Shown piece by piece: positions 32 to 18,614 of a stretch of 51,810 nucleotides of DNA. Position numbers and translations under genes: made by a program. Source of the stretch: Candidatus Sulfopaludibacter sp. SbA3. GTDB lineage: Bacteria > Acidobacteriota > Terriglobia > Bryobacterales > Bryobacteraceae. The stretch covers positions 1-51,810 of the forward strand of contig CAMATG010000001.1 of assembly GCA_945860645.1 (NCBI GenBank). Direction: 5' to 3'. Position 1 is the stretch's first letter. Each line of letters begins with the position of its first letter. The notes under the pieces are model-generated. The model was given only the letters and a program-made list of their open reading frames with translations. It made no database searches and had not been told where the DNA came from.

Positions 32-748
32 GTGGCCTGGAACGAAATCTGGGGCTCATTCTGCGATCTCGCCATGGCCGGCGGCCCGCCCCACAAAGGC
101 ACTCTACTCCTACCCGCCACCCTCGCCGAAGTCGAATCCCACCCCGCCGAATACGCCGAAATCACGGCCGAAATCTGCCGCGGCATCCAACTCGTAACCA
201 CCCTCAAAGCCAGTCCATCCCAACAGCCCGGCTGGATCGAAGTCACCTGTTCCAACCCCGCCGAAGCCGGCTGGCTCACCCGCGCCATCGTCATGGAGAA
301 CGTCTCCGCCCGCGCCGAAGATGCCAATCTCTTTCTCCCCGCCGGCCCCCACTACCGCATCGCCAAAGAGGTCAAAAACGTCATCACCTCCACGGCCAAG
401 ACGTTCCACTATTGGGACCAACACACCTGGCCCGCCCAGCAGCGCGAAATCGCCGCTCTTTTTGAAAAGCAAGGAGCCCTCCTCCATCCCCCAGCCCAAT
501 CGAACCCGAACATCCCGGAAGCCCTCCAACGAGCCACCGGGCTCACGCCAACCCAGCACACCTACCCCGGCTGGCTCGGCCTTGAATGTCCCGATGTCCA
601 CGCCGCCATCTGGCTCATGCGCGCCTTGGTCGCCAGCGCCATCCTCGCCCGCCGCGAACAGACGGTGTTATTCGTCCCCAGCCACGAGACGGTCATCGAA
701 CCCCTCGCCGACATCCACGCATTCGCCAAATCCCGCAGCATTATCTGA
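32..748 (+). CDS. hypothetical protein built from two homologous modules (possibly 5'-truncated by the window edge)
   Basis: ORF 32-748. The frame stays open back to nt 2, so the true start may lie upstream of the window. Two internal repeats: PGWIEVTCSNPAEAGWLTRAIV..ARAEDANLFLP and PGWLGLECPDVHAAIWLMRALV..ARREQTVLFVP. No family recognised by eye. Confidence 0.5.
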   Translation: MAWNEIWGSFCDLAMAGGPPHKGTLLLPATLAEVESHPAEYAEITAEICRGIQLVTTLKASPSQQPGWIEVTCSNPAEAGWLTRAIVMENVSARAEDANLFLPAGPHYRIAKEVKNVITSTAKTFHYWDQHTWPAQQREIAALFEKQGALLHPPAQSNPNIPEALQRATGLTPTQHTYPGWLGLECPDVHAAIWLMRALVASAILARREQTVLFVPSHETVIEPLADIHAFAKSRSII

Positions 749-916: not shown

Positions 917-1657
917 TTATCGCCGCTTCTTGCCCTTGATCAGCGCCATCCCCACAAATCCGGTCAAAATGAGCGCGAGACCACCCGGTTCCGGCACGTC
1001 CTGGATATTGGGACCAGTGATATGCAACGCAACGTTGTCGAAGCCGGTGTTGAGGGCGGTAGCGGAACTGTTACTACCAAATCGCGTGTCATAGAATGCG
1101 GCGCTGACCAGACGCAGGGTAAGCGTCTGGCCGAGCCTCGCGTTCAGCAAGGCTGTGACGTCCAACGAGCGATTCGTCCACGGAGTGGAGCCGCTCGCAT
1201 TTGGATTCACGACCGAAAAGGTATTGGCGAGTTGGCTGCTTCCCTGAAGAAAACCAACGAACACGTTGACGCCGCGGAAGGTGCCAGTCCCGCTCCAAGT
1301 CGCGGTATCGGCCCAGGTAAGGATCGCCGAACTGATGGGGGAGCTGGGAATTGGAAAGCTCTGGTAGAACTCGTTGGTGAACTGCCCGAGGTCGGCGGAG
1401 ATCGCCGGGAACTGCGTGGAGGAATAGGCACCAAGACTCCCGAAGATCGGGTTAGTTCCGGGCGCGCAACCAGAAGCGGTGGTTTGCGGGGAGAAACCAG
1501 AGTTGCAGGCCCCAGTGACGTTCGCGAAAGTGGTGGTAGCCGCGGTCCAGCCACCAGCTCCCGTTTCAAATGTACCGTTGGAGATTACGTTGATGGTGCC
1601 CGCGTGGACTGTCATAAACGCGCCAGCCAGGGCAAGAGTGAGTTTTGAGAGGGTCAT
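917..1657 (-). CDS. PEP-CTERM sorting-domain secreted protein
   Basis: N-terminal signal peptide MTLSKLTLALAGAFMTVHA. C-terminus VPEPGGLALILTGFVGMALIKGKKRR has the PEP motif, a hydrophobic helix and a basic tail. ATG at 1657; TTG at 1660 is an alternative start. Confidence 0.8.
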   Translation of the reverse strand: MTLSKLTLALAGAFMTVHAGTINVISNGTFETGAGGWTAATTTFANVTGACNSGFSPQTTASGCAPGTNPIFGSLGAYSSTQFPAISADLGQFTNEFYQSFPIPSSPISSAILTWADTATWSGTGTFRGVNVFVGFLQGSSQLANTFSVVNPNASGSTPWTNRSLDVTALLNARLGQTLTLRLVSAAFYDTRFGSNSSATALNTGFDNVALHITGPNIQDVPEPGGLALILTGFVGMALIKGKKRR

Positions 1658-1870
1658 CAATCAACAAAGCGAAAATCCTTCAAAACCAGTGACACAGCTT
1701 TTTTGTTTGTGGTCACCATTTCCTTGGAACAAGCCCGCCAGGATCGCCTCCAGCAGCAAGCTGGTGCAGGGAGCCGCGGCGAAGCCGGGTCACCGCCTAA
1801 CTCCGAGCCAAATCCAACGGCGCCTGCCCATACAGCCCCGCGCCCAAAGCCCCCAACAGCGCCCGCCTCT

Positions 1871-2572
1871 TCATTGCTTCAACCTCCAGATTATCTGCCG
1901 CAGCATCCCCTGCCACATCCCGGCGTCTTTCTCACTCATCTTCATCCGCCGGATCAGCCGCCGCAACTTCAACGTGGTCGATACATCCACCGGCGGCTTC
2001 ACATATCCGCTCTCCGTCAGCGCGTCCAACAGATAATCGCCCACCCGGTCCTGCGCCCCCACCGAAGCCGCCCGCGACTCCGGTGCCGAAAGCAACTCCA
2101 CCTGCCCCGTCCGAATCAGTTCATACAAGGTAACCGCCACCGCCTGGCCCAGGTTCATCGACCGATGTTCCTCGCGAGTCGGAATCCGCAGCAGCCAATG
2201 GCAATGGCTCATATCGTCATTCGATAAGCCAAACTTCTCACTGCCAAACAGGATGGCCACGCGCCCCTTCACGCGCTTCATCTTCCGCCCGCCCGCCTCC
2301 AGCCCATAGAACGGCTGCAGCGTCTCCCGCGGCCCCAGGCCGGAGGTGCCAACCACCAAATGGCAATCAGCAATCGCATCAGCAATGGAATCAAACTCCC
2401 GAGCCTCGGTCAGTACCCGATCGGCATTCACCCCACTCCGAGCCTCATCCAGCGCCACCCGGTACGCATGCACCAACCGCAAATCAAAAAACCCAAAGTT
2501 CGACATCGCCCGCGCCGCCGCCCCTATATTTAAAGGGTTTCGCGGGCTCACCAACACCACAGTGATATTCAC
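1871..2572 (-). CDS. trmJ: SpoU/TrmH-class RNA 2'-O-methyltransferase, TrmJ-like
   Basis: N-terminus ITVVLVSPRNPLNIGAAARAMSNFGFFDLRLV and the downstream LFGSEKFGLSNDD..IPT motifs are typical of group-1 TrmH-family methyltransferases. GTG start at 2572 overlaps the upstream stop (GTGA). Confidence 0.8.
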   Translation of the reverse strand: MNITVVLVSPRNPLNIGAAARAMSNFGFFDLRLVHAYRVALDEARSGVNADRVLTEAREFDSIADAIADCHLVVGTSGLGPRETLQPFYGLEAGGRKMKRVKGRVAILFGSEKFGLSNDDMSHCHWLLRIPTREEHRSMNLGQAVAVTLYELIRTGQVELLSAPESRAASVGAQDRVGDYLLDALTESGYVKPPVDVSTTLKLRRLIRRMKMSEKDAGMWQGMLRQIIWRLKQ

Positions 2573-3024
2573 AGATTCGGAAAAAACCGTCCCTTCAGAA
2601 CTTCCGGCAAGGCCAGCGAACTGATCGCCTTGATCGCACCCGCAAGGTGCTCAAACTCCACCTGGAGCCGCTCATTCATTACTCCCACTGTATGCGTTTT
2701 TCCCCCGGAAAGCTGCACCGTCACCTCACGAATCCAATGTGGATTCTCCCCCTCCGGCCGATACACATCCTCCAACCCGAAAAAGTTCACCCCCTCGGCC
2801 ACCTCCAGCAGCCGGATGAAATGCATGCGCGGCAACTTCCCCTCCAACCGCTCCTCCGTCTTGCCTTGGCTGCGCGTCTTCGACGCCACCACCGACCCAT
2901 CTCCACGTATCTCCACCCTCTGGTACCCGCCGCCAGGCTTACCCGATTGATAGTTGTAGACAATCCCGGTTCCTGCCAGTTGCTCCGGCCGCAAACCAAA
3001 CGGCAATTCCATCACATCCGCCAT
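2569..3024 (-). CDS. small hypothetical protein (151 aa) downstream of the metalloprotease gene
   Basis: ATG at 3024 (MADVMELPFG) preceded by a purine-rich agagaggacgagagag. The longer ORF start at 3111 would overlap the upstream gene. The stop overlaps the trmJ start. No family recognised. Confidence 0.6.
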   Translation of the reverse strand: MADVMELPFGLRPEQLAGTGIVYNYQSGKPGGGYQRVEIRGDGSVVASKTRSQGKTEERLEGKLPRMHFIRLLEVAEGVNFFGLEDVYRPEGENPHWIREVTVQLSGGKTHTVGVMNERLQVEFEHLAGAIKAISSLALPEVLKGRFFPNL

Positions 3025-3044
3025 CTCTCTCGTCCTCTCTCGCC

Positions 3045-5324
3045 CTACGGCGCCAGCCGGATCCGCTCCGGCACGATGTAGCGCGTCCCGGGCTGCAACA
3101 CAATATTCCAACGGTCGGACCCCGGTCCCAACGCTCCCGGGTTGAACTGCTTGTTCCGATTGTAGAATTCCTCTCCATAGGCGTCCGGGTCAATAACGTC
3201 CAAACTCGCGTACATGATGAAGAGCTCCTCCACAGTCTGAAACTCCTTCGCCACCACATTCAGCCGCTTCGGCGGCGCCACGCACGTGAACATCTCCGCC
3301 CCGTCCCGGTACCGGTAGCCGTACTCAAGATTGAAAAGCACAAACGACTCCCGCACCTTGTCCAGATCCGGGCACCCTAAGTCCTTCCAGTTATCGTAGA
3401 AATCGAAAATCGTGTTGCACTTCCGGATGGACTGGTCCGTAAACGCCTTCCAGAACCCCGTCCGGAACGCCACCTTGTGGTGGTTATGTATCCGCCACAG
3501 CGCGCAATGAATGCTCGCCTCATTGTGCGGCCCCAACGTCGAACTCTTGTCCTCCAGGTCCATCGAAAGGTCCCCGTCGTACCCGTCGTGGTACAACCCG
3601 TCATCGGCCATCACCGCCGATAGAAAGGTCGCAAGCCCTTCAAGCCAGGAATCTTCGTAGTGCTCTAACGTATCCTCTCCATGCTCCAACCTCTTTCCGT
3701 CGTTGTATTCGTAGCCCGTGTTGGGCAGGCCACCCAGCATGCAATACGTAATGAAGTGCCCATATTCGTGCAGAATCGGGTCCTGGTCCCTCACATCCCC
3801 AATCGCCAGCCGCATCGTCTTCCCGGACTGGCTGGAACCCCCTCCCGACGGCAGCACCACTGTGCACAACGGCAGGTTCTCGCTCGTCAGTTCCTGTATC
3901 CTCCAATGCCCCAACCACACGGATTTGTAGGCATCACAGATATCAACAAACGGCTGATACGTAATCTCAATCTTTCCCAGATCCACATCCGGCCCCGCCA
4001 CGTTCTGCAATGGCGTCGCGTCCAGCACCATCTGATGCCATACCACCTCGTCCTTCTTCACGGCAAACCGCGGCTCATCCGCGTGGTTGGACTTTCCCTT
4101 CACCACTACCACCCTGTTTTCCTTGTACTCCAGCCAGATCTTCAGCTCTGCCGCCGCCGACTCCGGTACGTTCGAAAACTCAAACACCCCACCGTCATCC
4201 AGGTGCGCCACCGCGTGCCGCGCCAACGTCGCCGCGGACCCGCCCACAAACAGCTCCACCTTAGCTCCCGGCAGGTACTCCTTCACAGGGCCATACTTCT
4301 TCTTCTCATCGTTGTAATCCCAAGTCCGGTTCCAGTACAGCCGCCCGGTCACCATCAGTCCGGTGGGCGCCACCGCCGGCGCCTCGCACGACGACACCTC
4401 CACCAGCCGATGGTAAAACCGGCAGCCAAACGTATCCTTCGTCGTCACAAACTCCCGATGGTTCGCCTGGTTCGACCGGCGCACCGCCTCGTCGCTCCAG
4501 AACCGCTTCCGGCACCCGGTCGTCCCTTCGCTCGCACGCGGACACGGCCACTGGTCCCCCGCCGCCGTCGTCCCTGGCCGGAAGAATAGCACCATCACCC
4601 GCCGGTTCACACCGTTCTGCCGGTTCTTCGTGGACGTATCCCCAGAGGACGCAAACGCGCTCAGCTCCCCCGTTGAAAACAGCATCGCCGGATTAAACTC
4701 GCCGCACCCCTGAAAATCTCCCTTCCCGCCCGCGTCCGCTCCCTTTCCCAAAAACTCCGTCTTCTCCAATTTCTGCGGAAACAGATACTCCATGTACTTC
4801 GCGAAAAGTGTTGCCCGCGTCTGTGGCCCCGCCGCGCCATCCGCCGGTAAACCGTTTGCGGTTTGGAATGCCTGGACTGTTGGCGTCCCCCCACCGCCTG
4901 TCGCCTTCAGCATCACGTCGATCTCGGTCTGCCCCCAGCCATCACTCGCCCATATCCTCTCCCACCGCGCCGGCTCCCGCACCAGCACCGCATACACCGC
5001 CTCCGCTCGCCACCCGGACAACGTCTTGTTAAACTCCTCGTCCCCGACCGGGTCCGCATGCCCAAACACCGAAAGCGGCGCCCCAACGTTCGCGTCTCGA
5101 ATTACCTTCAACTCCTCCAACTCGGCCTTCGACTCCGGCTTGACAAAGGCGCTCCCAAACTTAAACCGCACGTCGTCCAGCCGCCAGCAGTCAACCGTTT
5201 TCAGCTCTTCCTTGATGACAGTCTTTTCTCCGCCCGTCGAAGTCGCCGCATACACCGGCAAACTCGTCGAGGTAGCGTGGCTTGCCGCGCGCCCCCCGCC
5301 CATATCTTTCTCGCCGTAAGCCAT
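3045..5324 (-). CDS. multidomain protein: OmpA_C-like domain interrupted by a PG_binding_1-like insert, beta-rich middle region, HExxH metallopeptidase-like C-terminal half
   Basis: RFKFGSAFVKPESKAELEELK..VFGHADPVGDEEFNKTLSGWRAEAVYAVL and NRRVMVLFF form the OmpA-like core and tail. VQAFQTANGLPADGAAGPQTRATLF resembles PG_binding_1. ILHEYGHFITY is an HExxH motif. No N-terminal signal peptide. ATG at 5324; TTG at 5336 is an alternative start. Confidence 0.75.
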   Translation of the reverse strand: MAYGEKDMGGGRAASHATSTSLPVYAATSTGGEKTVIKEELKTVDCWRLDDVRFKFGSAFVKPESKAELEELKVIRDANVGAPLSVFGHADPVGDEEFNKTLSGWRAEAVYAVLVREPARWERIWASDGWGQTEIDVMLKATGGGGTPTVQAFQTANGLPADGAAGPQTRATLFAKYMEYLFPQKLEKTEFLGKGADAGGKGDFQGCGEFNPAMLFSTGELSAFASSGDTSTKNRQNGVNRRVMVLFFRPGTTAAGDQWPCPRASEGTTGCRKRFWSDEAVRRSNQANHREFVTTKDTFGCRFYHRLVEVSSCEAPAVAPTGLMVTGRLYWNRTWDYNDEKKKYGPVKEYLPGAKVELFVGGSAATLARHAVAHLDDGGVFEFSNVPESAAAELKIWLEYKENRVVVVKGKSNHADEPRFAVKKDEVVWHQMVLDATPLQNVAGPDVDLGKIEITYQPFVDICDAYKSVWLGHWRIQELTSENLPLCTVVLPSGGGSSQSGKTMRLAIGDVRDQDPILHEYGHFITYCMLGGLPNTGYEYNDGKRLEHGEDTLEHYEDSWLEGLATFLSAVMADDGLYHDGYDGDLSMDLEDKSSTLGPHNEASIHCALWRIHNHHKVAFRTGFWKAFTDQSIRKCNTIFDFYDNWKDLGCPDLDKVRESFVLFNLEYGYRYRDGAEMFTCVAPPKRLNVVAKEFQTVEELFIMYASLDVIDPDAYGEEFYNRNKQFNPGALGPGSDRWNIVLQPGTRYIVPERIRLAP

Positions 5325-5418
5325 GCTGTTCCACAATCAAACTCGCAGCAAGGCTCGCGAACGGCTCACACCATTCCACGCAAATTCTACCGCGCCATTC
5401 CAGCCAGCTATCTAAGCC

Positions 5419-6444
5419 TCAAAACCGCCGCAACAACGTCTCCCGGCCCACCCCCACCGCCTCATACCGGTTCTGCATCGTCGTCAAAATCGGATACCCA
5501 TAGTCCCCGCCAACCCCCACCCGCACCAACTCCACAATCCGCTTCCGCAGCCAAACCAAATCCCCAACCCCATCTACCGCCAATACAAACGCCTCCGGCG
5601 CGTTCTGCGACTTATGAAAAAACACCCCGGCCGATTGCAAACTCCCCGCCCCCAAAAACTCCATCCGCGTCCGCCGCCACACACACTCCCCCTTCACCAA
5701 ATCGAACTGCGCCTCCAACAATGCATACGCCCCGTCACCCCGGCTCTCCGCCATCAACCCCAACGCCGGCCGCCGCTTCACGCCCACATGCACCGCCATC
5801 CGGTGCCGCCCCATCAACCGGTAACGCCCCTCCGTCACCCCCTCCAACTCCGTCACGTTCGTCCCACGCACCAGCAGCACCCGCGCCGTCAACACATCCC
5901 CCGTCTCATCCACTAACCCAATCAACACCCCGTCCCCGCCCGGCACCGGCGCGCATACACTCCGCAACGGCGCCGCCGCCGTCTCCCATACTTGCTCTAC
6001 CGAAACCGACGGCTGCCCATCCCGCCCCGCCACATACCGGTGCCGAACCAGCCGGCCGCCCCGCCAAGCGTAAGCGTGCAACTCCCCGTTCGCCGCAATC
6101 ACCGGCCGCTCAACAAGCCGCTCCCCGCCCTCCAAAACAACCGCCAACACCAGCGGGCTATGCACCGCCTGCCCAAACAACAGGCTGCCTTCCCGCCACA
6201 TCCACCAGAACTCATCCAGCTTCGCCAACAGCTCCCCCGCCTGCGGAATCAGCAGCCCCATCCCACCCGGTGCCCGCTTGTCCCACTCCACCCCGCGGAA
6301 CAGTTCCACCTCGCCCGTGTCCGCCCGCGTCTCATGGAATTCCAGCGTGCACAGCGCGCCGTTCCCATCCACAAACGCACAGATCATCTCTGCCGACCGG
6401 CCGTCATAAAACACCGATGTCGATGCCGCCGTCGGTGCCTGCAT
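5419..6444 (-). CDS. hypothetical protein (341 aa), beta-rich, no recognisable domain
   Basis: ATG at 6444 lies 2 nt after the upstream TAA (TAAGGATG), indicating translational coupling. The longer ORF start at 6495 would overlap the upstream gene. G-ending codon bias matches the neighbouring genes. Confidence 0.65.
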   Translation of the reverse strand: MQAPTAASTSVFYDGRSAEMICAFVDGNGALCTLEFHETRADTGEVELFRGVEWDKRAPGGMGLLIPQAGELLAKLDEFWWMWREGSLLFGQAVHSPLVLAVVLEGGERLVERPVIAANGELHAYAWRGGRLVRHRYVAGRDGQPSVSVEQVWETAAAPLRSVCAPVPGGDGVLIGLVDETGDVLTARVLLVRGTNVTELEGVTEGRYRLMGRHRMAVHVGVKRRPALGLMAESRGDGAYALLEAQFDLVKGECVWRRTRMEFLGAGSLQSAGVFFHKSQNAPEAFVLAVDGVGDLVWLRKRIVELVRVGVGGDYGYPILTTMQNRYEAVGVGRETLLRRF

Positions 6445-6446
6445 CC

Positions 6447-7676
6447 TTAACTGCCGTGAACGTCCTTCAACTTGCCCTGCGTGTTCGGCCCGCAAATCCC
6501 GTCCACCGCCAGCGCGTAGTCACACTGGAACTCTTCCACCGCGCTCTTAAACGCACTGTCGTTGATATCGGTCGTCTCGCCAGCCCGGTAACCCAGATTG
6601 TTCAGCCGCCAAACCTGACCGCTGATCTCCTCCACCGGGTCCAGATGCCCCAGCTTCAAGCCCAGCTCGAACCCCTTCACCATCAACTTGCCGACCTTCT
6701 GGCCCAGCGGGTCCAGTGTCTTCTTGGTGACGCTCCCATCGCCGGCCGTCTTGATCTTCTCCCCACCGTCCAACTGGATATCGAGCTCCGTATCCACCAC
6801 CGGATTGCCCGCCCAATCCAACACTACGATCTTCAATTGCACCGGATCGCCAACCAGTTGGAACGTGGAATACTCCGTCGTCGGAACACTCTCTTCCTTC
6901 TTCTGTCGCGCCGGAATCTCCAATACATCGCCAGGGTACAGAACATTCGGGTTCCGCTTCGCCTTAATGCCGGCGTTCTTCCCGTCGTCCCAAATCGTCT
7001 TCCAAGACACATACCCGGCATCGGCCGCGATGCTGGCGATATGATCCCCCTGCGTCACTTTGTAAGGACCAGCCGGAATCTTCGGCGCGCCTTTGAACAA
7101 GGTGACCGCCGAACCCTCCGCGAAACTGCCCGACTTGGCCCATTCCCGCGCATCCAAATCCGGGAAACGGACGCGGCACGAGCCTGGATCAATTCCGTCC
7201 TTCCGGAACGATCCCTTCTCCGATAGCGTGCCCTTCTCAATACTCCCGTCCGGCAGAGTAACCTCAATGGCTAACCCCTTTACAGGACGCTTATTCTTGT
7301 CCAACAACTCCACTTCCACCCAGGTCTTCTTGGAGTCCTTCAGCGGATCTTTCCCACCGGAGCTCTTCGCTCCCGCGCCAGCCTGCGACGCGCCCTGGCT
7401 TCCACCCACCGTCATCTGCGGCAGATCCACCACGGCCAACGTCCACCGCCCGGCCGCCACCCGTTTGGCCGCCTCTTCAACAACCAGCGGGTCCGCCATC
7501 CGCTGCATAACGGAACCAAGTTCGGTCACCAGCAACTGGCGCAGCGCCTGGATCGCCGTTGGGTCCAACCGCGCACGGCGCAACAGCGTGGCCGTTCCTA
7601 CATCCACCGACGGCGTCCGCGACGGCGTGTTGGAGACGTGTACGAGTTTTCCTGAGATCCGAATACTGACTGTCAT
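6447..7676 (-). CDS. LysM plus PG_binding_1 peptidoglycan-binding protein
   Basis: LysM-like YKVTQGDHIASIAADAGYVSWKTIWDDGKNAGIKAKRNPNVLYPGDVLEIP. C-terminal PG_binding_1-like VWRLNNLGYRAGE..FKSAVEEFQCDYALAVDGICGPNTQGKL. Two beta-sandwich-like segments (VEVELLDKNKRPVKGLAIEVTLPDGS.., LKIVVLDWAGNPVVDTELDIQLDGG..). No signal peptide. Confidence 0.75.
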   Translation of the reverse strand: MTVSIRISGKLVHVSNTPSRTPSVDVGTATLLRRARLDPTAIQALRQLLVTELGSVMQRMADPLVVEEAAKRVAAGRWTLAVVDLPQMTVGGSQGASQAGAGAKSSGGKDPLKDSKKTWVEVELLDKNKRPVKGLAIEVTLPDGSIEKGTLSEKGSFRKDGIDPGSCRVRFPDLDAREWAKSGSFAEGSAVTLFKGAPKIPAGPYKVTQGDHIASIAADAGYVSWKTIWDDGKNAGIKAKRNPNVLYPGDVLEIPARQKKEESVPTTEYSTFQLVGDPVQLKIVVLDWAGNPVVDTELDIQLDGGEKIKTAGDGSVTKKTLDPLGQKVGKLMVKGFELGLKLGHLDPVEEISGQVWRLNNLGYRAGETTDINDSAFKSAVEEFQCDYALAVDGICGPNTQGKLKDVHGS

Positions 7677-7734: not shown

Positions 7735-8760
7735 TTAACGCGGATGGTCCAATTCTCTCGCCACCGGAACCAGTTCCCTGTATAAATCCAAAGGAATCGC
7801 CGATTCCCAATGGCCCGTCAAACGGGCTCCCATATATACCACCACAAACACCACGCCAATCGCCACCGCCAGACGCTGACCGGTGATCCAACCCCGCCTC
7901 CCGGCAAACCCCACGTGCAACGCCCCTTCCGCCGGGCACGCGCTGACACACTCCATACATCCGATGCACTCCGCCGAGCGAATCTGGACAAGTTTGTCCA
8001 CCGGAAGCCGGCTCGGGCACACCCGCGCACACTTCCCGCAATCAATACACGCACTCTTCTCCCGGCCGATCCGCAACGGGCTCGCCAGCGCCGCCAGCCC
8101 CATCAGCGCTCCATACGGACACAGATACCGGCACCAGGCATTCGGCACGAACAGCGATACGATCATCAAAAACCCCAGGACCCCGGCCGCCATCGGGGAC
8201 AGGAACCGGAAGAAGTTGAGCATCTTCACATCGGCAATCAAACCGTAGGGCGAGGCCAAAAAACCCTCGATGGATGCCGCATCCATGCGCAAAACGGCAT
8301 AAAAAAACGCGAAAAATAGCGCATATTTGCACGTTCTGAGCACCAAATCGAGCCATTTTGGAGTAAGAAAACTCCTCCCAAACGCGTCTCGACCGGTTTT
8401 CCACAGCCATTCGGACACCGTTCCCACCGGGCACAGCCACCCGCAAAACGCCTTCCGGAACACCAGCGAAAGTAATACAAACGTAACGAATAACACCATT
8501 GCCGCCGGGTGTATGACCGGCATATGCCCGGTCTCCAGAAGGTACCGGGTGTTCATCATCCCGGCGATCGGCAACCACCCCTCCACCCCGGGTGGCCGGC
8601 TGGCTTCCCAGGGAATCCATCGCCCTTCCAAACCCCGAACGAAGAGGATAAAGCCGACCCCAATCCAGAGATTTAACAGTAGGAAAACACCCTGCGCCAG
8701 ACCTCTCCACCGTTGGAAATCGTCCGCGGTGACCCGTCTTTTCCACTGGTCCCGATTCAT
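7735..8760 (-). CDS. NapH/MauN-type membrane-bound 4Fe-4S ferredoxin
   Basis: Several hydrophobic helices plus CPVGTVSEW, CRYLCPYGALM, CIDCGKCARVCP and CIGCMECVSACP motifs. Confidence 0.8.
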   Translation of the reverse strand: MNRDQWKRRVTADDFQRWRGLAQGVFLLLNLWIGVGFILFVRGLEGRWIPWEASRPPGVEGWLPIAGMMNTRYLLETGHMPVIHPAAMVLFVTFVLLSLVFRKAFCGWLCPVGTVSEWLWKTGRDAFGRSFLTPKWLDLVLRTCKYALFFAFFYAVLRMDAASIEGFLASPYGLIADVKMLNFFRFLSPMAAGVLGFLMIVSLFVPNAWCRYLCPYGALMGLAALASPLRIGREKSACIDCGKCARVCPSRLPVDKLVQIRSAECIGCMECVSACPAEGALHVGFAGRRGWITGQRLAVAIGVVFVVVYMGARLTGHWESAIPLDLYRELVPVARELDHPR

Positions 8761-9073
8761 GCTTTCAGCCTAAAGCTGCGCCCCGCTGAGTGCTGTGACC
8801 AAGGTCACTGTGACGATTGTAATCATAGGGAAACAAATTCAAGATGAAATGTTTTCTCATTGAAAATAAGGGACTTATCAAAATAATAGCACTTGTAATC
8901 TAGTCCAGGTCCTGTGCTAGACTAAGGGTCCGCCCAGTCATCTGGCGGGTCACAACGGGATTCCTGCCTCGGGAACACAATCACTACATCGCCAGTTTTC
9001 AACCGGTTTTCCACACCCTGTGGAAAATCTGAGGGAAACTTTTTCCCTGTAAGGCTTCTCTACTTTTTTCACC
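8761..9073. other. candidate oriC part 1 and dnaA promoter region
   Basis: Divergent intergenic region upstream of dnaA. The AT-rich patch at about 8815-8905 stands out in a high-GC genome. A palindromic DnaA-box pair sits at 9007-9027. Gene orientation and G/C bias switch here. Confidence 0.6.
9007..9027. promoter_or_regulatory. inverted pair of DnaA boxes
   Basis: ttttccaca (9007-9015), ccc, tgtggaaaa (9019-9027). Each matches the TTATCCACA consensus at 8 of 9 positions. The pair lies 47 nt upstream of the dnaA ATG. Confidence 0.7.
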
Positions 9074-10393
9074 ATGAGTACTTGGGATCGTATCAGGCAC
9101 CACCTTTCGCAAACCATCAGCGCTGAGAGCTTTCAGAACTGGCTTGCCCCGACCGAACAACGCGAAGAATTCAGCGGGACTCTCCTCGTCAGAGTACCGA
9201 GCGAAGCAGCCAAGATGTGGCTGGAACAGGAATACGGCGACAAAATCGCCGCGGCAATCAGCGCGCTGAAACTGGACGTACGCACCGTGCTTTACGAAGT
9301 CGCCGCCGGGCCTTCAGCCCTGGCCGCTTTGACGGGCGATAAGACCGGACCGGCGAATGAAGTCCAATTCGCTTCGCCGGCAACCCAATTAAATCCGAAA
9401 TACTCGTTCGACTCCTTCGTCGTCGGCTCCTGCAACCAGTTCGCCCACGCGGCCGCACGGGCCGTGGCGGACCATCCGGCGAATCGGTATAACCCCTTGT
9501 TTATCTATGGGGGAGTGGGGATGGGGAAAACCCATCTGATGAACGCCATCGGTAGGGCACTGATGAATCACCGCGAGGGGATGAAAGTCGTATACACCTC
9601 CAGCGAACGGTTCATGAACGAAATGATCGCCAGCATCCGCACCGACCGTATGTCGCAGTTCCACCAGCACTACCGGAACGCCGATGCGCTGCTCATCGAC
9701 GACGTCCAGATCCTGGCCAACCGTGAACGCACACAAGAAGAATTCTTCCATACTTTCAACGAGTTATACGAACACGGCAAGCAAATCGTGATCTCCTCCG
9801 ACCGTCCTCCGAAGGAAGTCTCGGGGTTGATGGACCGTCTGCGCAGCCGGTTTGAGTGGGGACTGATGGTGGACGTCCAGGCGCCGGACCTGGAGACCAA
9901 GATGGCGATTCTGGACAAGAAGTCCGAAGCCGATGGGGTGCATCTCCCCGAGGACGTTCGGATCTATATCGCCACGAAGACGAAATCGAACGTGCGGGAG
10001 CTGGAAGGCGCCCTGGTGAAGCTGATTGCCTATTCCAGCGTGACCGATACCCCCATCTCACTGGCGATGGCCCAGCAGGTCCTGAAACACCTTTCCGCGG
10101 GAAGTGATAAGCGGATCACGGTGGAATCGATCATCAAGGCGGTTGCGGAGAAGTTCAGCCTGCAACCGGCGCAGTTGAAGCAGAAGACGAACGTGCAGCA
10201 GATCGCCTATCCGAGGCAGATCGCGATGTATTTGTGCAAAGAACTGACGACGGCATCGCTCCCCGAGATCGGCCGGCACTTCAATGGGAAGCATCACACG
10301 ACGGTGCTGCACTCGGTGCAGAAAATCGACAAGTTGCGGCAACGTGACGCGGACTTGAACAGGATTATCCACAGCATCACCGACGCGTTATGA
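9074..10393 (+). CDS. dnaA: chromosomal replication initiator DnaA
   Basis: Walker A GGVGMGKTHL, LLIDDVQ, the sensor region, and the C-terminal DNA-binding motif KHHTTVLHS. Confidence 0.97.
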   Translation: MSTWDRIRHHLSQTISAESFQNWLAPTEQREEFSGTLLVRVPSEAAKMWLEQEYGDKIAAAISALKLDVRTVLYEVAAGPSALAALTGDKTGPANEVQFASPATQLNPKYSFDSFVVGSCNQFAHAAARAVADHPANRYNPLFIYGGVGMGKTHLMNAIGRALMNHREGMKVVYTSSERFMNEMIASIRTDRMSQFHQHYRNADALLIDDVQILANRERTQEEFFHTFNELYEHGKQIVISSDRPPKEVSGLMDRLRSRFEWGLMVDVQAPDLETKMAILDKKSEADGVHLPEDVRIYIATKTKSNVRELEGALVKLIAYSSVTDTPISLAMAQQVLKHLSAGSDKRITVESIIKAVAEKFSLQPAQLKQKTNVQQIAYPRQIAMYLCKELTTASLPEIGRHFNGKHHTTVLHSVQKIDKLRQRDADLNRIIHSITDAL

Positions 10394-10651
10394 ACGTTTT
10401 ACGGATTTTTCCACAGACAGGGCCAAAATAGCCTGAGGAAGTCTGTGGAGGGATTTCGCCCCCCTGGGTCTTCCACCGATTCCCACTGGCGATTCCAAAA
10501 CGGCACATGACGAGAAGCACTTTGTTTTAGTACAATTTAGAGAGAATTCAACATATCCACAGGCCCTACTATTCCGATACCTGTTTAGTAATCATCTTTC
10601 ACAGAAGAACAGAAGCGGAGAAGGGCAGCGGGGACGGCAAAGGCAACGACG
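10394..10651. other. candidate oriC part 2 (dnaA-dnaN intergenic)
   Basis: DnaA boxes ttttccaca 10407-10415 and atatccaca 10553-10561. Weaker TCCAC cores at 10443-10451 (inverted) and 10469-10477. AT-rich stretch ctttgttttagtacaatttagagagaattcaacatat at about 10520-10556. Confidence 0.55.
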
Positions 10652-11767
10652 ATGGAATTCACAGTCAATCGATCCGATCTGGTGCGTGAACTGGGCCTGT
10701 CCCAGGGTGTTGTCGAGAAGAAGTCGACGATACCGATCCTCTCGAACATCCTCCTCGAGGCGGATGGCGAGCGGTTGACGTTGACGGCGACCGATCTGGA
10801 GTTGGGGATCCGGTGCAGCTGCCCGGCGAAGGTGAAGAAGGCCGGTAGCGGCACGATTCCGGCCAAGAAGCTGATGGACTACGTCCGCCTGTTGCCGGAA
10901 GGCGAAATCAACATCAAGTTCGGCGACAACCAATGGGCGTCGATCACGGCCGGCAAGGCGCGTACCCGGATTGCGGGTATGAGCCGGGAGAGCTTCCCGG
11001 AACTGCCGGAGATGCCGGACACGCTGGCGGAACTGCCGGTGAAGTTGCTGGCGGGGATGATCCAACGCACGATCTTCGCGATCTCGGCCGAAGAATCCCG
11101 GTTTACCCTGAACGGCGCGCTGTTGCTGGTGAAACCGGATGGGCTGACCATGGTCTCCACCGACAGCCACCGTCTGGCCACCGTAGAAGTGCCTATGGCG
11201 ATCGATTTGAGCTCCGGGCAACCCTTCCGTGCCCTCCTGCCCCGCAAGGCCATGAACGAGCTCCTGAAGCTCTCCAGCGAAGCTGGACCGGACGCGAAGC
11301 TCCTGTTCAGCGGTGACGACAATCACCTGTTCTTCCAACTGGGCGACCGGTTGCTGTTGAGCCGCAAGCTGACCGGCAACTTCCCCGACTTCGAACGCGT
11401 GCTGCCGAAAGAGCACCCGAACGTGATCACAATGCACCGCGACGAGCTGAAGGCTTGTTTGGAACGCGTGATGCAGTTCGCCGATGAGCGATCGCGAGCG
11501 ATCAAGCTGCGCGCCATCGATGGCGAAGTGATGTTGCACTCGTCCTTGTCGGACACCGGCGAATCGGAAGAGACGCTGAACGTCACCTACAACGGCCCGA
11601 AGGTGGACATTGGCTTCAACGCCCAGTACCTGCTGGAATTCCTGCGGGCCGGGGACGAAGCGGAAGTTTCGTTTTTGTTTAAAGACGCCGGCAGTGCCGG
11701 CGAGTTGCGTCCGGTGGGAGATTCCCCCCTCCGTTACCGGTACGTCGTCATGCCGATGCGCATTTGA
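10652..11767 (+). CDS. dnaN: DNA polymerase III beta sliding clamp
   Basis: 371 aa in the canonical position after dnaA. MEFTVNRSDL.., the LTLTATDLE motif and PMRI at the C-terminus are typical. Confidence 0.95.
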   Translation: MEFTVNRSDLVRELGLSQGVVEKKSTIPILSNILLEADGERLTLTATDLELGIRCSCPAKVKKAGSGTIPAKKLMDYVRLLPEGEINIKFGDNQWASITAGKARTRIAGMSRESFPELPEMPDTLAELPVKLLAGMIQRTIFAISAEESRFTLNGALLLVKPDGLTMVSTDSHRLATVEVPMAIDLSSGQPFRALLPRKAMNELLKLSSEAGPDAKLLFSGDDNHLFFQLGDRLLLSRKLTGNFPDFERVLPKEHPNVITMHRDELKACLERVMQFADERSRAIKLRAIDGEVMLHSSLSDTGESEETLNVTYNGPKVDIGFNAQYLLEFLRAGDEAEVSFLFKDAGSAGELRPVGDSPLRYRYVVMPMRI

Positions 11768-11778
11768 AAACCACGTAG

Positions 11779-14208
<2,430 letters not shown>

Positions 14209-14336: not shown

Positions 14337-15125
14337 ATGACTGCAAACGATTTCCGACGGGCCAAGGCCCAGGGCAGGAAGCTATCGATGGCTACCTGCT
14401 ACGACTACACGTTCGCCCGGCTGCTGGCGAAGAGCCCGATTGACGGCATCCTGGTGGGCGATAGCGCCGCCATGGTGATGCATGGGCATGAGACGACGCT
14501 GACGGCGACGGTTGAGATGATGCGGATGCATGTGGCCGCTGTGGCGCGCGGGGCGGGAGACAAGTTGGTTGTTGCCGACCTGCCGTTTCTCTCGTACCGG
14601 AAGGGACTGCCGGCGGCGATGGAGGCGGCGCATGTGCTGATGGCGGCCGGTGCGCATGCGGTGAAACTGGAAGGCGTTGGCGGGCACGAGGACGTGATCG
14701 CGCAACTGGTGGGCAGCGGTGTTCCGGTGATGGGCCACCTGGGCTTGCAGCCGCAGTCGGTGCAGGCGTACGGCGGATTCAAGCCGCAGGGCCGGGATGC
14801 CGTGGCGGCGTTGGCGATCGCGCGGCAGGCGGAGGCGCTGGAAGAGTTGGGAGCGTTCGCGGTGGTTCTTGAGTGTATTCCGGCGGCGTTGGCGGCGCAG
14901 ATTACGGCGACGATTGCGATTCCGACGATTGGGATTGGTGCGGGTGCCGATTGCGACGGCCAGATTCTGGTGCTGCAGGACCTGTTGGGGCTGAACTCCA
15001 GTTTTCGGCCGCGCTTCGCGCGGCAGTTTTGTGATGGAGAGACTGCGATTCTGAAGGCTTTGGCGGAATATGACCTCGCGGTGAAATCGTCTGAGTTTCC
15101 TCGCGCTGAGGAGAGCTACTCGTGA
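14337..15125 (+). CDS. panB: 3-methyl-2-oxobutanoate hydroxymethyltransferase
   Basis: KLSMATCYDYTFARLL, ILVGDSAAMVMHGHETT, VVADLPFLSY and KLEGG-type motifs. Confidence 0.93.
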   Translation: MTANDFRRAKAQGRKLSMATCYDYTFARLLAKSPIDGILVGDSAAMVMHGHETTLTATVEMMRMHVAAVARGAGDKLVVADLPFLSYRKGLPAAMEAAHVLMAAGAHAVKLEGVGGHEDVIAQLVGSGVPVMGHLGLQPQSVQAYGGFKPQGRDAVAALAIARQAEALEELGAFAVVLECIPAALAAQITATIAIPTIGIGAGADCDGQILVLQDLLGLNSSFRPRFARQFCDGETAILKALAEYDLAVKSSEFPRAEESYS

Positions 15126-15830
15126 AGGCCAAAAATTTTTCCGGCGCTTCGCGCCGCCACTATGTGAGGTACTGTCTACCAGGAGGACCGCAGTGACGGA
15201 AGCCGTTATTACCTCGCGAGCTACTCAGTTCCACCGAGCATTTCGGGTGTCCAAGGTGCCGATGCTGCGAACGGGTCGACTCTCTCCGCGACTCTGCTGG
15301 GACGAAAAACATTTCCCCGCGCTGCGCGCGGCCGCACGCGTTCTTAGTTGGCGAGCTGGCCGGTTCTGCAGGGCATTTCTGGTGTTTGGGGTGCCGAAGC
15401 TGCGAGCGAGTCGACTATCGCCGCGATTCTGCTGGGGCGAAAAAATTTTCCCCGCGCTGCGCGCGGCCGCAGGCGTTCTTAGTTGGCGAATTGCGCAGTG
15501 CTACAGAGCATTTCGGGTGTCCGAGGTGCCGATGCTGCGAGCGAGTCGACTATCTCCGCGAATCTGCTGGGGCGAAAAACATTTCCCCGCGCTGCGCGCG
15601 GTCGCAGGCGTTCTTAGTTGGCGAGTTGCCCGGTCCTACCGGATATTGCGGGTGTCCGAGGTGCCGATGCTGCGAGCGAGTCGACTATCTCCGCGAATCT
15701 GCTGGGGCGAAAAACATTTCCCCGCGCTGCGCGCGGTCGCAGGCGTTCTTAGTTGGCGAGTTGCCCGGTTCTACCGGATATTGCGGGTGTCCGAGGTGCC
15801 GATGCTGCGAGCCGGCAGGCTATCCCGTTC
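15110..15830. repeat. tandem array of a 135-bp unit, about 5 copies, between panB and panC
   Basis: Unit starts at 15245, 15380, 15515, 15650 and 15785 (period exactly 135). A degenerate copy lies before 15245 and a partial copy after 15785. Copies 15515-15649 and 15650-15784 differ at one base (15635 c vs 15770 t). Each unit carries the hairpin ccgcgc-tgc-gcgcgg. Confidence 0.9.
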
Positions 15831-15857
15831 ATCGCCCCAACCGATTGGAGTATCGTA

Positions 15858-16643
15858 ATGCGAGTCTCAACGAACCTCACAGAGTGGCGCGCCAGGCGCG
15901 CGGAAGTTTCCGGACGAACGATCGGCGTCGTTCCGACAATGGGTGCGCTCCACCCCGGACACGGTTCGCTGGTGGAACGCTGCCGGCGGGAGAATGAAAT
16001 CGTAGTGGCTACGCTGTTCGTCAACCCCACACAGTTCAACGACCCTTCCGATTTGCAGAAGTATCCGCGCACCTTGGAAGCAGATCTGGAACTGCTGGAG
16101 GCACTGGGCACCGATGACGTCTTCTGCCCGGACACCGCCACGCTATACCCGAACGGCTATGCGTTTCGCGTCATCTCCGACAGCCTGGCCACGGTGATGG
16201 AGGGGCGGAGCCGGCCGGGCTTCTTTGATGGTGTGATGACCGTGGTGTTGAAGCTGTTGAACATCATTCAGGCCGACCGCGCCTACTTCGGCGAGAAGGA
16301 CTACCAGCAATGGAAAGTACTCCACGCCATGGCCGCCGACCTGTTCCTGCCTACCGAGATCCTCGCCTGTCCGACGATCCGTACCGCGTCCGGACTGGCG
16401 GAGAGTAGCCGGAACGCCCTGCTGACCGCGGGCGGCCGGCAGAAGGCCGCCGAGATCTACCGCGCACTCCGGTTCGCCCCAACGGCCGATGTTGCGCGGC
16501 AGCAGCTGGAAGCCGAGGGGTTCCGCGTCGATTACGTGGAAGAACATTGGGGCCGGCGGTTTGCCGCCGCGTTTCTGGAAGGGGTCCGTTTGATCGATAA
16601 TGTGCCACTGGAGGAACCGGAATGCTCTTCTGCCTTGATGTAG
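15858..16643 (+). CDS. panC: pantoate-beta-alanine ligase
   Basis: ATG at 15858 with ggag 8 nt upstream. IGVVPTMGALHPGHGSLV (HxGH motif) and VATLFVNPTQFN. The ORF-track start at 15753 lies inside the repeat array. Confidence 0.92.
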   Translation: MRVSTNLTEWRARRAEVSGRTIGVVPTMGALHPGHGSLVERCRRENEIVVATLFVNPTQFNDPSDLQKYPRTLEADLELLEALGTDDVFCPDTATLYPNGYAFRVISDSLATVMEGRSRPGFFDGVMTVVLKLLNIIQADRAYFGEKDYQQWKVLHAMAADLFLPTEILACPTIRTASGLAESSRNALLTAGGRQKAAEIYRALRFAPTADVARQQLEAEGFRVDYVEEHWGRRFAAAFLEGVRLIDNVPLEEPECSSALM

Positions 16644-17395
16644 GAAATAGCCAGACCTTTGGGGGCGTCTACGACGGGGACACGTTGCTGTTCACGTTTC
16701 GGCGAACGGGGAGCGCGCGGGCTTCCTCAGATGAGTCCGGGATCTTCTTCAGGACGGTGTTGCGCGAGAATGGCGTGGACCCCGCTTCAGTGCGGCAGGT
16801 GGCGATTTGCTCCGTTGTGCCGGACGCGCTGCACTCACTGCGGAACTGTTTCTTGAAGTACTTTCAGGCGGAGCCGTTTGTGCTGCAGCCGGGGACGAAG
16901 ACGGGGTTGAAGATCCGGTACAGGAACCCGTTGGAGGTTGGCGCGGACAAGATTGCCAACGCGATGGGCGCGGTGGGGCGGTACCCGCGAAGGGACCTGG
17001 TGATTGTGGACTTCGGCACGGCCACGACTTTGTGCGCGGTGAACGCGGAGGCTGAGTATCTGGGCGGGATCATCACGCCGGGGGTGCAGATGTCGATGGC
17101 GGCGTTGGACGCGCGGACGGCGCGGTTGCCGGCGGTGGAGATCTGCAAGCCGGCGACGGTGCTGGGCCGCACGACGGTGGAGAGTATTCAGTCCGGGCTG
17201 TTCCACGGCACGCTGGCCACGGTGCGCACGCTGACGGGGGCGATCGCCGAAGAGCAGTTTAACGGACGGGAACCGGTGCTGGTGGGAACGGGCGGATTCG
17301 GGCGGCTCTTCGCGCAGGAGAAGCTGTTCGATGCGTTCATTCCGGAGTTGGCGCTGCTGGGTTTGCGGCGGGCTGTGGGGTTGGCGACACCGTAG
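16622..17395 (+). CDS. coaX: type III pantothenate kinase
   Basis: MLFCLDVGNSQT.., VDFGTATT, GGIITPG. GGAGGA lies 7 nt upstream of the ATG. Overlaps the panC end by 22 nt. Confidence 0.9.
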   Translation: MLFCLDVGNSQTFGGVYDGDTLLFTFRRTGSARASSDESGIFFRTVLRENGVDPASVRQVAICSVVPDALHSLRNCFLKYFQAEPFVLQPGTKTGLKIRYRNPLEVGADKIANAMGAVGRYPRRDLVIVDFGTATTLCAVNAEAEYLGGIITPGVQMSMAALDARTARLPAVEICKPATVLGRTTVESIQSGLFHGTLATVRTLTGAIAEEQFNGREPVLVGTGGFGRLFAQEKLFDAFIPELALLGLRRAVGLATP

Positions 17396-18614
17396 AATGA
17401 AGCGCGCTGTTTGCCTCGCGGAGCAACCCCATTTCAATCGGGATGGCTACCTTGGCGAGTACCGTGAACACGAACGCTCCGAGCGCCCAGATGCCCAGCG
17501 CGACGGTGAGTTCCACCCAAGTAGGAGAGTATTCGTGGATCTTGCCCCACGGTTCGGGGATGAAGCCGGGGATGATGGTGCCGATGCCCTTTTCGATGAG
17601 GATGCCGACGAAGAGCATGACGCAGGCGCTGTAGAGGACCGCCTTTTTTGCGCGCAGGTGATGGAGGGTGAGCAACCCGGTGGCGGTGGCAATCAGCGCG
17701 ATGGACGACCAGATCCAGGGAACGAGCGCGCGCTTTTCGCCGATCCCGAAGAAGAGGTAGCGGGCGCTCTGGCCGTGGTGGGTGTTGCGATAGAACTCGA
17801 CGAACAACTCAGAGATCGTCATGACGACGCAGATCTGGGCGGCGACGGTGACGACGACGGAGAGTTTCTGAATCGTTTCGTGCGCCACGGGATAACCGCC
17901 GAAGCGGCGGATGAGCGTCAGCACGAGAATCATCAATGCAGGGCCGGCGGTGAAGGCCGTCGCCAGGAAACGCGGGCCTAAGAGGGATGAGTTCCAGAAT
18001 GGCCGCGCCGGGAGGCCGGCGTAGAGGAACGCCGTGACCAGGTGCAGACTGACGGCCCAGGCGATGGAGAGGAGCACGACGGGCACGTAATAACGCTTAT
18101 CCGCTTCGCGCCCTTGCCAGTGGGAATACAGCAGGTAGAACGGGACACCGACATTGAGAGCGAGGTAGCCGTTCAAGACCAGGATGTCCCACGCCAGGAG
18201 GGAGCGCGGGAAGTTGATGCGGCCAACAACGGGGAGCAGATGCCAGAGGCGGGCGGGGCCGCCGACATCGACCACCACGAAAGAGATGGCCATGATGAGA
18301 GCGGCAACGGCCATGGCTTCCCCGATAAGGACGGCGCTGTGGAAGTCGTGATCTTTGAGCACATAGGTCGGCATGACGAGGATGACGGCGGCGGCGGCGA
18401 CACCGACGAGGAAGGTGAAATTGGAGATGTAGAATCCCCAACTGACGTGATCGTGGAGGCCGGTGACGATGAGGCCTTCGCGGAGCTGGACAGAGTAGGC
18501 CCAGGCGCCGCAGCACATGAGGAACGTGAGGACGCCCATCCAGGCGTGATAGGCGGTGGACCCTTGGGTTGCCTCGCGCAACGCGTCGTTGAAGAAAGCT
18601 CGCAGTGTGCGCAT
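17337..18614 (-). CDS. NrfD/PsrC-family integral membrane quinol-interacting subunit
   Basis: 425 aa, about 10 hydrophobic helices. Sits immediately downstream (3-nt gap) of an NrfC-like FeS protein. Confidence 0.8.
   Translation of the reverse strand: MRTLRAFFNDALREATQGSTAYHAWMGVLTFLMCCGAWAYSVQLREGLIVTGLHDHVSWGFYISNFTFLVGVAAAAVILVMPTYVLKDHDFHSAVLIGEAMAVAALIMAISFVVVDVGGPARLWHLLPVVGRINFPRSLLAWDILVLNGYLALNVGVPFYLLYSHWQGREADKRYYVPVVLLSIAWAVSLHLVTAFLYAGLPARPFWNSSLLGPRFLATAFTAGPALMILVLTLIRRFGGYPVAHETIQKLSVVVTVAAQICVVMTISELFVEFYRNTHHGQSARYLFFGIGEKRALVPWIWSSIALIATATGLLTLHHLRAKKAVLYSACVMLFVGILIEKGIGTIIPGFIPEPWGKIHEYSPTWVELTVALGIWALGAFVFTVLAKVAIPIEMGLLREANSALHSTVSPTPQPAANPAAPTPE

Follow-up and report, generated by a model that had tools for sequence, protein, structure and literature searches.

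Why would a bacterium encode proteins with cell-wall-binding domains and no export signals in a compact row of genes beside dnaA? The question is raised by four minus-strand genes, here named g1 to g4, in a 51,810-nt stretch of Candidatus Sulfopaludibacter sp. SbA3 (contig CAMATG010000001.1, positions 1 to 51,810), which is referred to as the window. The genes g1 (6447-7676, 409 aa), g2 (5419-6444, 341 aa), g3 (3045-5324, 759 aa) and g4 (2569-3024, 151 aa) were defined from a six-frame open reading frame (ORF) listing and by direct reading.

The locus is probably an orphan cargo cassette of a type VI secretion system (T6SS), made up of a toxin, its immunity protein and a loading helper, and not placed beside vgrG or T6SS core genes. 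T6SS substrates leave from the cytoplasm, which in this model accounts for the missing signal peptides; cell-wall-binding domains without export signals would therefore have an ordinary explanation. The g3 toxin family is most likely large and undescribed, and belongs to soil Acidobacteria. Domain content, modularity, tail-partner covariation, the signal-peptide pattern and the T6SS adjacency of relatives were observed; T6SS secretion in this organism, protease activity, its target, and the roles of g1 and g2 are what we infer.

The putative g3 effector family and its partner genes

The product of g3 is, on the evidence of sequence comparison, a polymorphic effector with a constant part at residues 1-316. 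In this N-terminal module (nt 4377-5324, minus strand), a PG_binding_1 domain interrupts an OmpA-like domain, and a Cys-rich extension (WPCPR...C...FxCRFYHR...SPCE) comes after them. The OmpA match has E=1.5e-7 and 32.1 bits against a Pfam cut-off of 27.2 (PF00691); that of PG_binding_1 has E=4.5e-5 (Pfam). A profile search of PDB gave a split match in which the two OmpA halves are separated by the PG_binding_1 insert, and the second half (G.GE.NP...NRRV) sits after it. The OmpA-type motif GHAD...NKxLSxxRA and the Cys columns are invariant across modules. In g3 the motif reads GHADPVG...NKTLSGWRA, and D91, N99, L102, S103 and R106 do not vary among 17 diverse modules. The OmpA-like domain thus has the conserved D...R motif for peptidoglycan binding, and such binding is predicted.

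Homologues of g3 fall into two sets. Full-length orthologues have 37-68% identity; a larger set shares residues 1 to ~316 only, at 50-65% identity. At least 13 unrelated tail types follow the module among the best 120 matches, and those with annotation hints are toxin-like (Het-C, weak reprolysin-like and weak DUF5700 zinc-peptidase matches). Among 1.84 billion representatives, 957 clusters at 50% identity match the module profile at E<=1e-30, and the module is nearly always located at the extreme N-terminus of proteins 380-1789 aa long. There are 283 matches in GTDB species representatives, with many paralogues in single metagenome-assembled genomes (MAGs). Most are in Bryobacteraceae and Solibacteraceae, where the family is massively expanded; the others are in Phycisphaerae (Planctomycetota), Nitrospirales (Nitrospirota), Nannocystaceae (Myxococcota) and Methylomirabilota.

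The module may load the protein onto the VgrG spike, hold it on the peptidoglycan of the prey periplasm, or do both. A tentative proposal, to which we give slightly less than even weight, is that it is a hitherto unnamed domain which delivers or marks T6SS cargo effectors (like MIX, FIX and RIX), working with a dedicated secreted helper, g1, and carrying toxin and immunity families that are almost all unknown. The carried families may include a zincin fold without a PDB relative and paired cytoplasmic and lipoprotein immunity proteins. A literature search found nothing specific on a named OmpA-type T6SS marker domain or on acidobacterial T6SS effectors, nor any published description of the OmpA module with inserted PG_binding_1, the composite g1 helper, or the toxin and immunity families.

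A short-tailed form of the module also occurs. In L013, L014, L016-L019, L028, L052 and L072 (6408-10270), OmpA-module proteins of ~460 aa are regularly followed by a signal-less protein of ~780-830 aa, which in Phycisphaerales is a phospholipase D (PLD) and in Acidobacteria belongs to the unannotated family F5. Such short-tailed proteins may be carriers for a separate cargo toxin and not themselves toxins.

The tail of g3 (aa 323-759, nt 3045-4358, minus strand) is the predicted toxin domain. It comprises a transthyretin-like beta-sandwich (aa ~323-453, nt 3966-4358) and a helical HExxH domain (nt 3048-3956). HEYGH is located at residues 519-523 (nt 3756-3770) and EHYE begins at aa 554; HEYGH and the EHYE..W.E helix are invariant in 26 homologues. 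The invariant residues are H519-E-Y-G-H523, E554-H-Y-E557 and E562, the latter two (columns 232-235 and 240 of alignment A4) lying in a helix at model residues 234-251 and offering candidates for the third zinc ligand. The HExxH, OmpA and PG_binding_1 motifs, whose lack of conservation would have refuted the first-pass annotation, are conserved in orthologues.

The AF2 model of the tail, built with these 26 homologues, is confident (predicted local distance difference test, pLDDT, 90.6; predicted template-modelling score, pTM, 0.89) and places the beta-sandwich before the helical domain. When the whole tail model was searched against PDB and BFVD with Foldseek, the sandwich alone was aligned (transthyretin-like folds), and none of the 50 best matches listed covered the catalytic domain. 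An enhancin (M60-like) match was at noise level (E=0.09, probability 0.10). No peptidase family in Pfam or NCBIfam matches g3, and the PDB profile search matched the OmpA part only. The tail also exists on its own, in a protein of ~470 aa, and attached to other N-termini. From its motif and fold class it is a putative metallopeptidase toxin domain, to which we assign no family.

The g4 gene follows this tail. In the survey of ~90 loci, g4 and the g3 tail co-occur in the same six of six loci and g4 occurs nowhere else; L100 is a seventh case. Each other tail type has its own downstream family. Some of these families mostly carry signal peptides (F23 6/6, F18 5/7, F41 4/4) and others mostly do not (F5 0/10, F7 3/10, F38 1/4, f302 0/6). 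This tail-partner covariation is the signature expected of effector-immunity pairs, and g4 is predicted to be the immunity protein specific to the g3 tail, since it partners only that tail and is a lipoprotein in other lineages. Among its homologues, export signals are of the lipoprotein type in L100 (LPLAC), Sec/transmembrane in L002 and Tat-like in L034 and L049; the copies in the window, L001, L027 and L029 have no signal. In L034 (13297-14188) and L049 (3169-4114), tandem g4 copies follow the effector, the first signal-less and the second Tat-like (SRRAMVLL... and SRRALPLL...). These may provide dual immunity, cytoplasmic and periplasmic, to one toxin. DUF6438 is matched weakly, below the Pfam cut-off, by five of ten g4 members.

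The first-pass annotation saw no recognisable domain in g2, and indeed no match was found in Pfam, NCBIfam or PDB sequences, including by a profile search of PDB. Its AF2 model is all-beta (pLDDT 85.7, pTM 0.86) and resembles 6-bladed propellers at a template-modelling score of ~0.46-0.50 (Foldseek). This is a generic beta-propeller, from which no specific function can be read. Paralogues of g2 (34-38% identity over the full length, hhalign probability 100%) immediately follow the genes of OmpA-module effectors in L021 and L091/L099; the tails of these effectors end in a metzincin-like HEVGHQVFLAH. The paralogues carry twin-arginine lipoprotein signals, TRRSFLPVFMSFAGC and TRRSAITLAGGYLELAAC, of the pattern TRRSFL...FAGC and TRRSAI...LAAC.

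Because its paralogues are Tat-lipoproteins directly downstream of metallopeptidase-tailed effectors, g2 is assigned by homology to an immunity-like beta-propeller family, of which it is a cytoplasmic, signal-less member. The preferred reading is that g2 is an immunity gene that stayed behind, or was retained, when its effector was lost. Most likely the window protein is a retained orphan or cytoplasmic immunity protein, or is now a partner of g1; it probably still acts in the cytoplasm, since it is conserved without a signal peptide.

The g1 protein has a composite architecture. An N-terminal domain (aa 1-110, nt 7347-7676, minus strand as for the whole gene) is followed by a transthyretin/CarboxypepD_reg-like sandwich (aa 111-200, nt 7077-7346), a LysM-like domain (aa ~205-255, nt 6912-7064), an Ig-like region and PG_binding_1 (aa 357-403, nt 6468-6608). 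The sandwich was found by domain search and PG_binding_1 has E=3.5e-10 (Pfam); LysM is weak in Pfam (E=0.025), with a stronger match of that region to an endolysin PHROG (E=1.3e-7). The three murein-binding domain types noted at first in g1 and g3 (OmpA-like, PG_binding_1 and LysM-like) were therefore recovered by profile searches, LysM weakly in Pfam. In some other genomes the g1 architecture is divided over two genes. Across syntenic genomes, identity is 73-79% for g1, 72-78% for trmJ, 85-87% for dnaA and 53-58% for g2.

The dnaA-trmJ site

The locus is bounded on the left by dnaA (9074-10393, plus strand) and a NapH-like ferredoxin gene (7735-8760, minus strand), and on the right of the variable slot by trmJ (1871-2572, minus strand), which encodes a SpoU-type RNA methyltransferase. 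These boundaries are conserved and outside the system. The four genes had been described as a tightly coupled operon next to oriC. Their common direction and close spacing stand: the g1/g2 junction is TAA-GG-ATG, a 20-nt spacer separates g3 and g4, and the g4 stop overlaps the GTG start of trmJ in GTGA. The idea of one conserved operon does not, as only g1 is constant and the content from g1 to trmJ varies among genomes. The position beside oriC fits the order dnaA-dnaN-gyrB at 9074-14208 and a cumulative GC-skew minimum at ~8-10 kb. No internal promoters or terminators beyond shuffle expectation were found in the cassette.

No signal peptide was found on any of the four products, even in maximal ORFs, nor in 40 g3N-type, 13 g1C-type, 11 g1 and 8 dnaA-locus g2 proteins (hydropathy heuristic). 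A start-codon error concealing signal peptides is ruled out because they are absent from maximal ORFs and across families, and the original statement that the proteins lack them was upheld. The g3 start at 5324 (MAYGEK) agrees with the aligned N-termini of its homologues.

Gene content at this site was compared among related genomes. The window has g1, signal-less g2, g3, signal-less g4 and trmJ. L100 has g1, a g3 orthologue, a lipoprotein g4 and trmJ, with no g2; L099 and L098 taken together give dnaA, g1, an effector with a metzincin-like tail, a g2-like Tat-lipoprotein and trmJ. In L005, L011, L012 and L015, g1 and g2 are followed by an OmpA-module effector with another tail and then by a 302-aa gene (not seen in L011). 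L096 has two copies of g1, then g2, an OmpA-module effector and the 302-aa gene; L003 and L004 have g1, g2, a methyltransferase and the 302-aa gene; L006, L094 and L095 have g1 and g2 only, with g1 duplicated in L095. Genes in related loci were called by codon-usage log-odds. Some short genes were missed by this caller (g4 of the window, the g2-like gene of L021), so key loci were re-checked by ORF listing or tblastn.

g1 is the sole constant gene at the site, fixed between dnaA and trmJ in more than ten genomes, some without any effector; the remainder turns over. Judged by this gene content, the dnaA-trmJ site is a hotspot for swapping of toxin-immunity cassettes. The homologues are not scattered singletons without synteny, since synteny exists at this site. 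The single four-part module first proposed has to be replaced by a mosaic of an adaptor-like g1, an immunity-like g2 and a g3-g4 effector-immunity pair in a variable slot. Base composition gives no signal of a recent horizontal insertion of g3-g4: GC and GC3 are native.

Two further observations concern this site. In L003 (10999-12965) and L004, the gene filling the slot instead of an OmpA-module effector is a Methyltransf_2 (O-methyltransferase-like) gene, and the 302-aa gene after it is the same conserved gene that trails effectors in L005, L012 and L015. Tandem duplicates of g1 (g1-g1-g2) are found in metagenomic relatives (L095:3403-5989, L096:3415-5987, L097:3-1826); the copies are 65-78% identical to g1 of the window.

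Type VI secretion and competing explanations

The link to T6SS comes through relatives. L002 contains ClpV, VgrG, PAAR, a g1C-like gene, a g3 orthologue (47%), g4 and FHA/DUF4123. L072 (Phycisphaerales) and L047, both MAGs of the class Phycisphaerae, contain TssF, ClpV, VgrG, a gene combining the sandwich with phage lysozyme, a g1C-like gene (39%), an OmpA-module protein and PLD. L089, a Nitrospirales chromosome, has VgrG, a g1C-like gene and then two successive OmpA-module/partner gene pairs. In L010 a split g1 adjoins DUF2169. Linkage of the family to vgrG, PAAR or T6SS adaptor genes is thus seen in L002, L047, L072, L089 and L010, not in the window; a vgrG-distal T6SS cargo cassette is suggested here through relatives. 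The first-pass view that signal-less murein-binding proteins are typical cargo of T6SS or phage-tail-like machines agrees with these neighbourhoods, in which relatives adjoin ClpV, VgrG, PAAR, TssF, DUF4123 and DUF2169.

g1 shares in this linkage. In the Phycisphaerales T6SS cluster, the gene flanked by VgrG/lysozyme and the OmpA-module gene shares 39% identity with the C-terminal half of g1, and the sandwich domain of g1 is common to the VgrG-adjacent lysozyme effector. In ~20 of 79 loci, from four phyla and including vgrG/T6SS clusters, the gene immediately preceding an OmpA-module gene encodes g1 or its C-terminal half. In L002, L047, L072 and L089, homologues of the C-terminal half are stand-alone LysM genes placed after vgrG and before the effector; in the window, g1 is upstream of the effector gene g3 and vgrG is absent.

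LysM and PG_binding_1 are among six domain families described in vgrG loci, where they form separate proteins, VgrG fusions or the N-termini of toxins, and a stand-alone LysM protein was required for co-immunoprecipitation of VgrG and effector (Wang et al. 2023, PMC10673891). The first-pass conclusion that the combination matches no known system does not hold, given these published effector-recruitment modules. Because the published stand-alone LysM protein bridges VgrG and effector, g1 may be a LysM/PG_binding_1 adaptor or co-effector linking the effector to VgrG. Outside Proteobacteria, T6SS was reported in Rhodopirellula baltica and Solibacter usitatus only (Boyer et al. 2009, PMC2660368). 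In this survey the OmpA-module family is most visible in Planctomycetes and Acidobacteria, the two phyla of these species; the report in S. usitatus lends plausibility at lineage level only.

The cassette would then work as follows. The helper g1 would link the g3 effector to VgrG; the g3 N-terminal module would load onto the VgrG spike, hold on to the periplasmic peptidoglycan of the prey, or both; the sandwich and the HEYGH zincin domain would form the toxic part; and g4 would inhibit the g3 tail specifically. g2 would represent an immunity family; the effector that belongs with this family has a metzincin-like tail and, in another lineage, holds the same site between g1 and trmJ.

Several points weigh against this account. 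No T6SS core gene is present in the 51.8-kb window, and in the survey of 79 loci no acidobacterial one adjoins vgrG; all four vgrG-linked loci belong to Phycisphaerae/Phycisphaerales, Nitrospirales or an unclassified contig. Sequence divergence of g1 is as low as in a housekeeping gene (73-79% identity, comparable to trmJ), and in some genomes g1 is found as a singleton or with g2 only. The catalytic domain of g3 has no recognisable relative, so the term protease rests on motif and predicted fold. Neither g2 nor g4 of the window has an export signal, which does not fit a purely periplasmic target; both are predicted to be cytoplasmic, and the earlier label "envelope-targeting" should be read as conditional. 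Signal peptides were called by hydropathy and by eye, not by SignalP or TatP.

The same gene roles could be combined with delivery by a non-T6SS route in Acidobacteria, such as an extracellular contractile injection system (eCIS), outer-membrane vesicles, lysis release or an undescribed exporter recognising the N-terminal module. eCIS particles include LysM proteins among their core components (PMC10673891). As first reported, the 51.8-kb window was found to contain no sheath, tube, baseplate or secretion gene, and no T6SS or phage-tail gene; no surveyed acidobacterial locus adjoins any T6SS gene, and most OmpA-module genes are alone with their partner gene. Yet orphan cargo effectors far from vgrG are usual for T6SS, MIX effectors being an example, and all secretion-related neighbours observed for the family are T6SS-specific (ClpV, TssF, DUF4123, DUF2169, VgrG with gp5_C/DUF2345). 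No sheath, tube, baseplate or eCIS gene was found near any of ~100 related loci, and there is no IMG/VR relative; we regard such a route as unlikely. A tblastn search with P. aeruginosa Hcp1 gave no match in any locus, a result that is uninformative. A phage, prophage or phage-tail-like particle was rejected as an origin: besides the lack of an IMG/VR relative, PHROG matches are to endolysin LysM and PG-binding regions, and no tail genes lie near the loci.

The constancy of g1 suggests another explanation: g1, alone or together with g2, would be inherited vertically as a housekeeping factor that serves the envelope or cell cycle of the producer itself (e.g. as a peptidoglycan scaffold near the origin), g3-g4 would be an insertion beside it, and the four genes would not cooperate. 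The trmJ-like identity, the fixed position of g1 between dnaA and trmJ even in effector-free genomes, its native base composition and its occurrence as a singleton in a 7.3-Mb genome are consistent with this. Yet g1 has no signal peptide, so neither Sec nor Tat can bring it to the peptidoglycan of its own cell. Its recurrent position upstream of OmpA-module genes, including in vgrG/T6SS clusters, and the sandwich shared with a VgrG-adjacent lysozyme effector also speak against it, and its probability is lower still. Least probable is an intracellular conflict or defence system (e.g. anti-phage), with a protease activated inside the cell, murein-binding domains that sense wall fragments, and g2 and g4 as cytoplasmic regulators. 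All four window products are predicted to be cytoplasmic and the locus is variable, like defence islands; however, the four proteins match none of 5027 PADLOC models and contain no NTPase, nuclease or sensor domain (Pfam, NCBIfam), homologues of g2 and g4 are exported lipoproteins in other lineages, and the neighbours of relatives are T6SS genes, not defence genes. The orphan T6SS cargo cassette is therefore preferred.

Other features of the window are as follows. The dnaA upstream region (8761-9073), adjoining the NapH-like 4Fe-4S membrane ferredoxin gene, falls at the cumulative GC-skew minimum; oriC is probably located there, since the two coincide. One sigma-70-like promoter match lies ahead of dnaA (8860-8887, plus strand). 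Just beyond trmJ, a 247-aa protein (917-1660, minus strand) has a signal-like N-terminus and a weak C-terminal PEP-CTERM sorting signal, and is a candidate exosortase-dependent surface protein. A 238-aa ORF (32-748, plus strand) has strong coding potential (codon-model score 73.5) and no Pfam match.

On the far side of the origin region, panB, panC and coaX (14337-17395, plus strand) precede the genes of a Psr/Nrf-like respiratory complex (17337-23087, minus strand), comprising a molybdopterin oxidoreductase (770 aa), a 4Fe-4S protein (372 aa) and an NrfD-type membrane subunit (425 aa). A block at 25507-31950 (minus strand) encodes a urea carboxylase-like protein of 1118 aa, an amidase (allophanate hydrolase-like, 513 aa) and two DUF1989 proteins. 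It is syntenic with a block beside gyrB in related genomes (L003); the window has ~10 kb extra between gyrB and the block. Two genes encode Vgb_lyase/DUF5074-like beta-propellers (31722-32822, minus strand; 38024-39034, plus strand). Finally, 34378-51810 is a cluster of large envelope and surface proteins, including a 1218-aa TonB-receptor-like protein (CarboxypepD_reg and OMP_b-brl_4 barrel), a 1217-aa He_PIG/cadherin repeat protein, a 922-aa M14 carboxypeptidase-domain protein and a VWA-domain protein that is cut off by the end of the window after more than 1390 aa.

Significance and relation to known systems

Acidobacteriota are among the most abundant soil phyla; to our knowledge, almost nothing is known of the T6SS effectors of this phylum or of Planctomycetota. 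The conserved N-terminal module would provide a simple handle for listing hundreds of new effector-immunity pairs in both phyla. Most tails are unannotated; that of g3 contains a confidently modelled zincin domain with no structural relative in the best matches listed. New immunity families are also indicated, namely g4, which is weakly DUF6438-like, and the beta-propeller lipoprotein family. The dnaA-trmJ site is a natural record of toxin-immunity cassette exchange in which immunity genes are left behind. Peptidoglycan-binding domains without export signals are to be expected in substrates of contractile secretion systems. The concept of how T6SS works is unchanged by these findings, and secretion in this organism is itself conjectural.

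VgrG-3 of Vibrio cholerae, a VgrG whose C-terminal domain binds peptidoglycan and is lysozyme-like, is a T6SS substrate directed at the envelope of prey cells. It shares with g3 a PG_binding_1-type domain and the lack of a signal peptide. It differs in that g3 is predicted to be cargo and is not a VgrG fusion, and in that the toxin domain of g3 is a predicted zincin and not a muramidase.

The LysM and PG_binding_1 discrimination domains of vgrG loci (PMC10673891) resemble the present locus in the helper-effector-immunity order, in the absence of signal peptides and in that relatives lie directly after vgrG. Unlike that system, the window locus has no vgrG, and its g1 combines an extra N-terminal domain and a transthyretin-like sandwich with LysM, an Ig-like region and PG_binding_1. 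The OmpA/PG_binding_1/Cys-rich module of g3 is a further difference; OmpA is unmentioned in PMC10673891 (0 occurrences). In addition, PG_binding_1 is gamma-proteobacterial only in PMC10673891, and is found here in Acidobacteriota, Planctomycetota, Nitrospirota and others.

Polymorphic toxins such as Rhs and contact-dependent inhibition (CDI) proteins (Zhang et al. 2012, PMC3482391) also have tips and immunity genes that are swapped at a fixed locus, orphan immunity genes and HExxH metallopeptidase tips. OmpA appears in the survey of PMC3482391 only as the C-terminal Tox-OmpA of toxins delivered by PVC; in contrast, the OmpA domain of g3 belongs to the N-terminal constant module. Unlike Rhs and CDI proteins, g3 has no Rhs or filamentous repeats, releasing peptidase or PAAR.

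The features of MIX, FIX and RIX compared here are taken from established knowledge together with PMC10673891. Like these domains, the g3 module is a constant N-terminal unit followed by many C-terminal toxins; the genes are often orphans, each has its own downstream immunity gene, and paralogues are many. The module has no sequence relation to them, and the only Pfam and NCBIfam matches are OmpA and PG_binding_1. It also differs from them in being built from recognisable peptidoglycan-binding folds in which the OmpA-type motif is kept; consequently, the g3 module may also act in the target periplasm.

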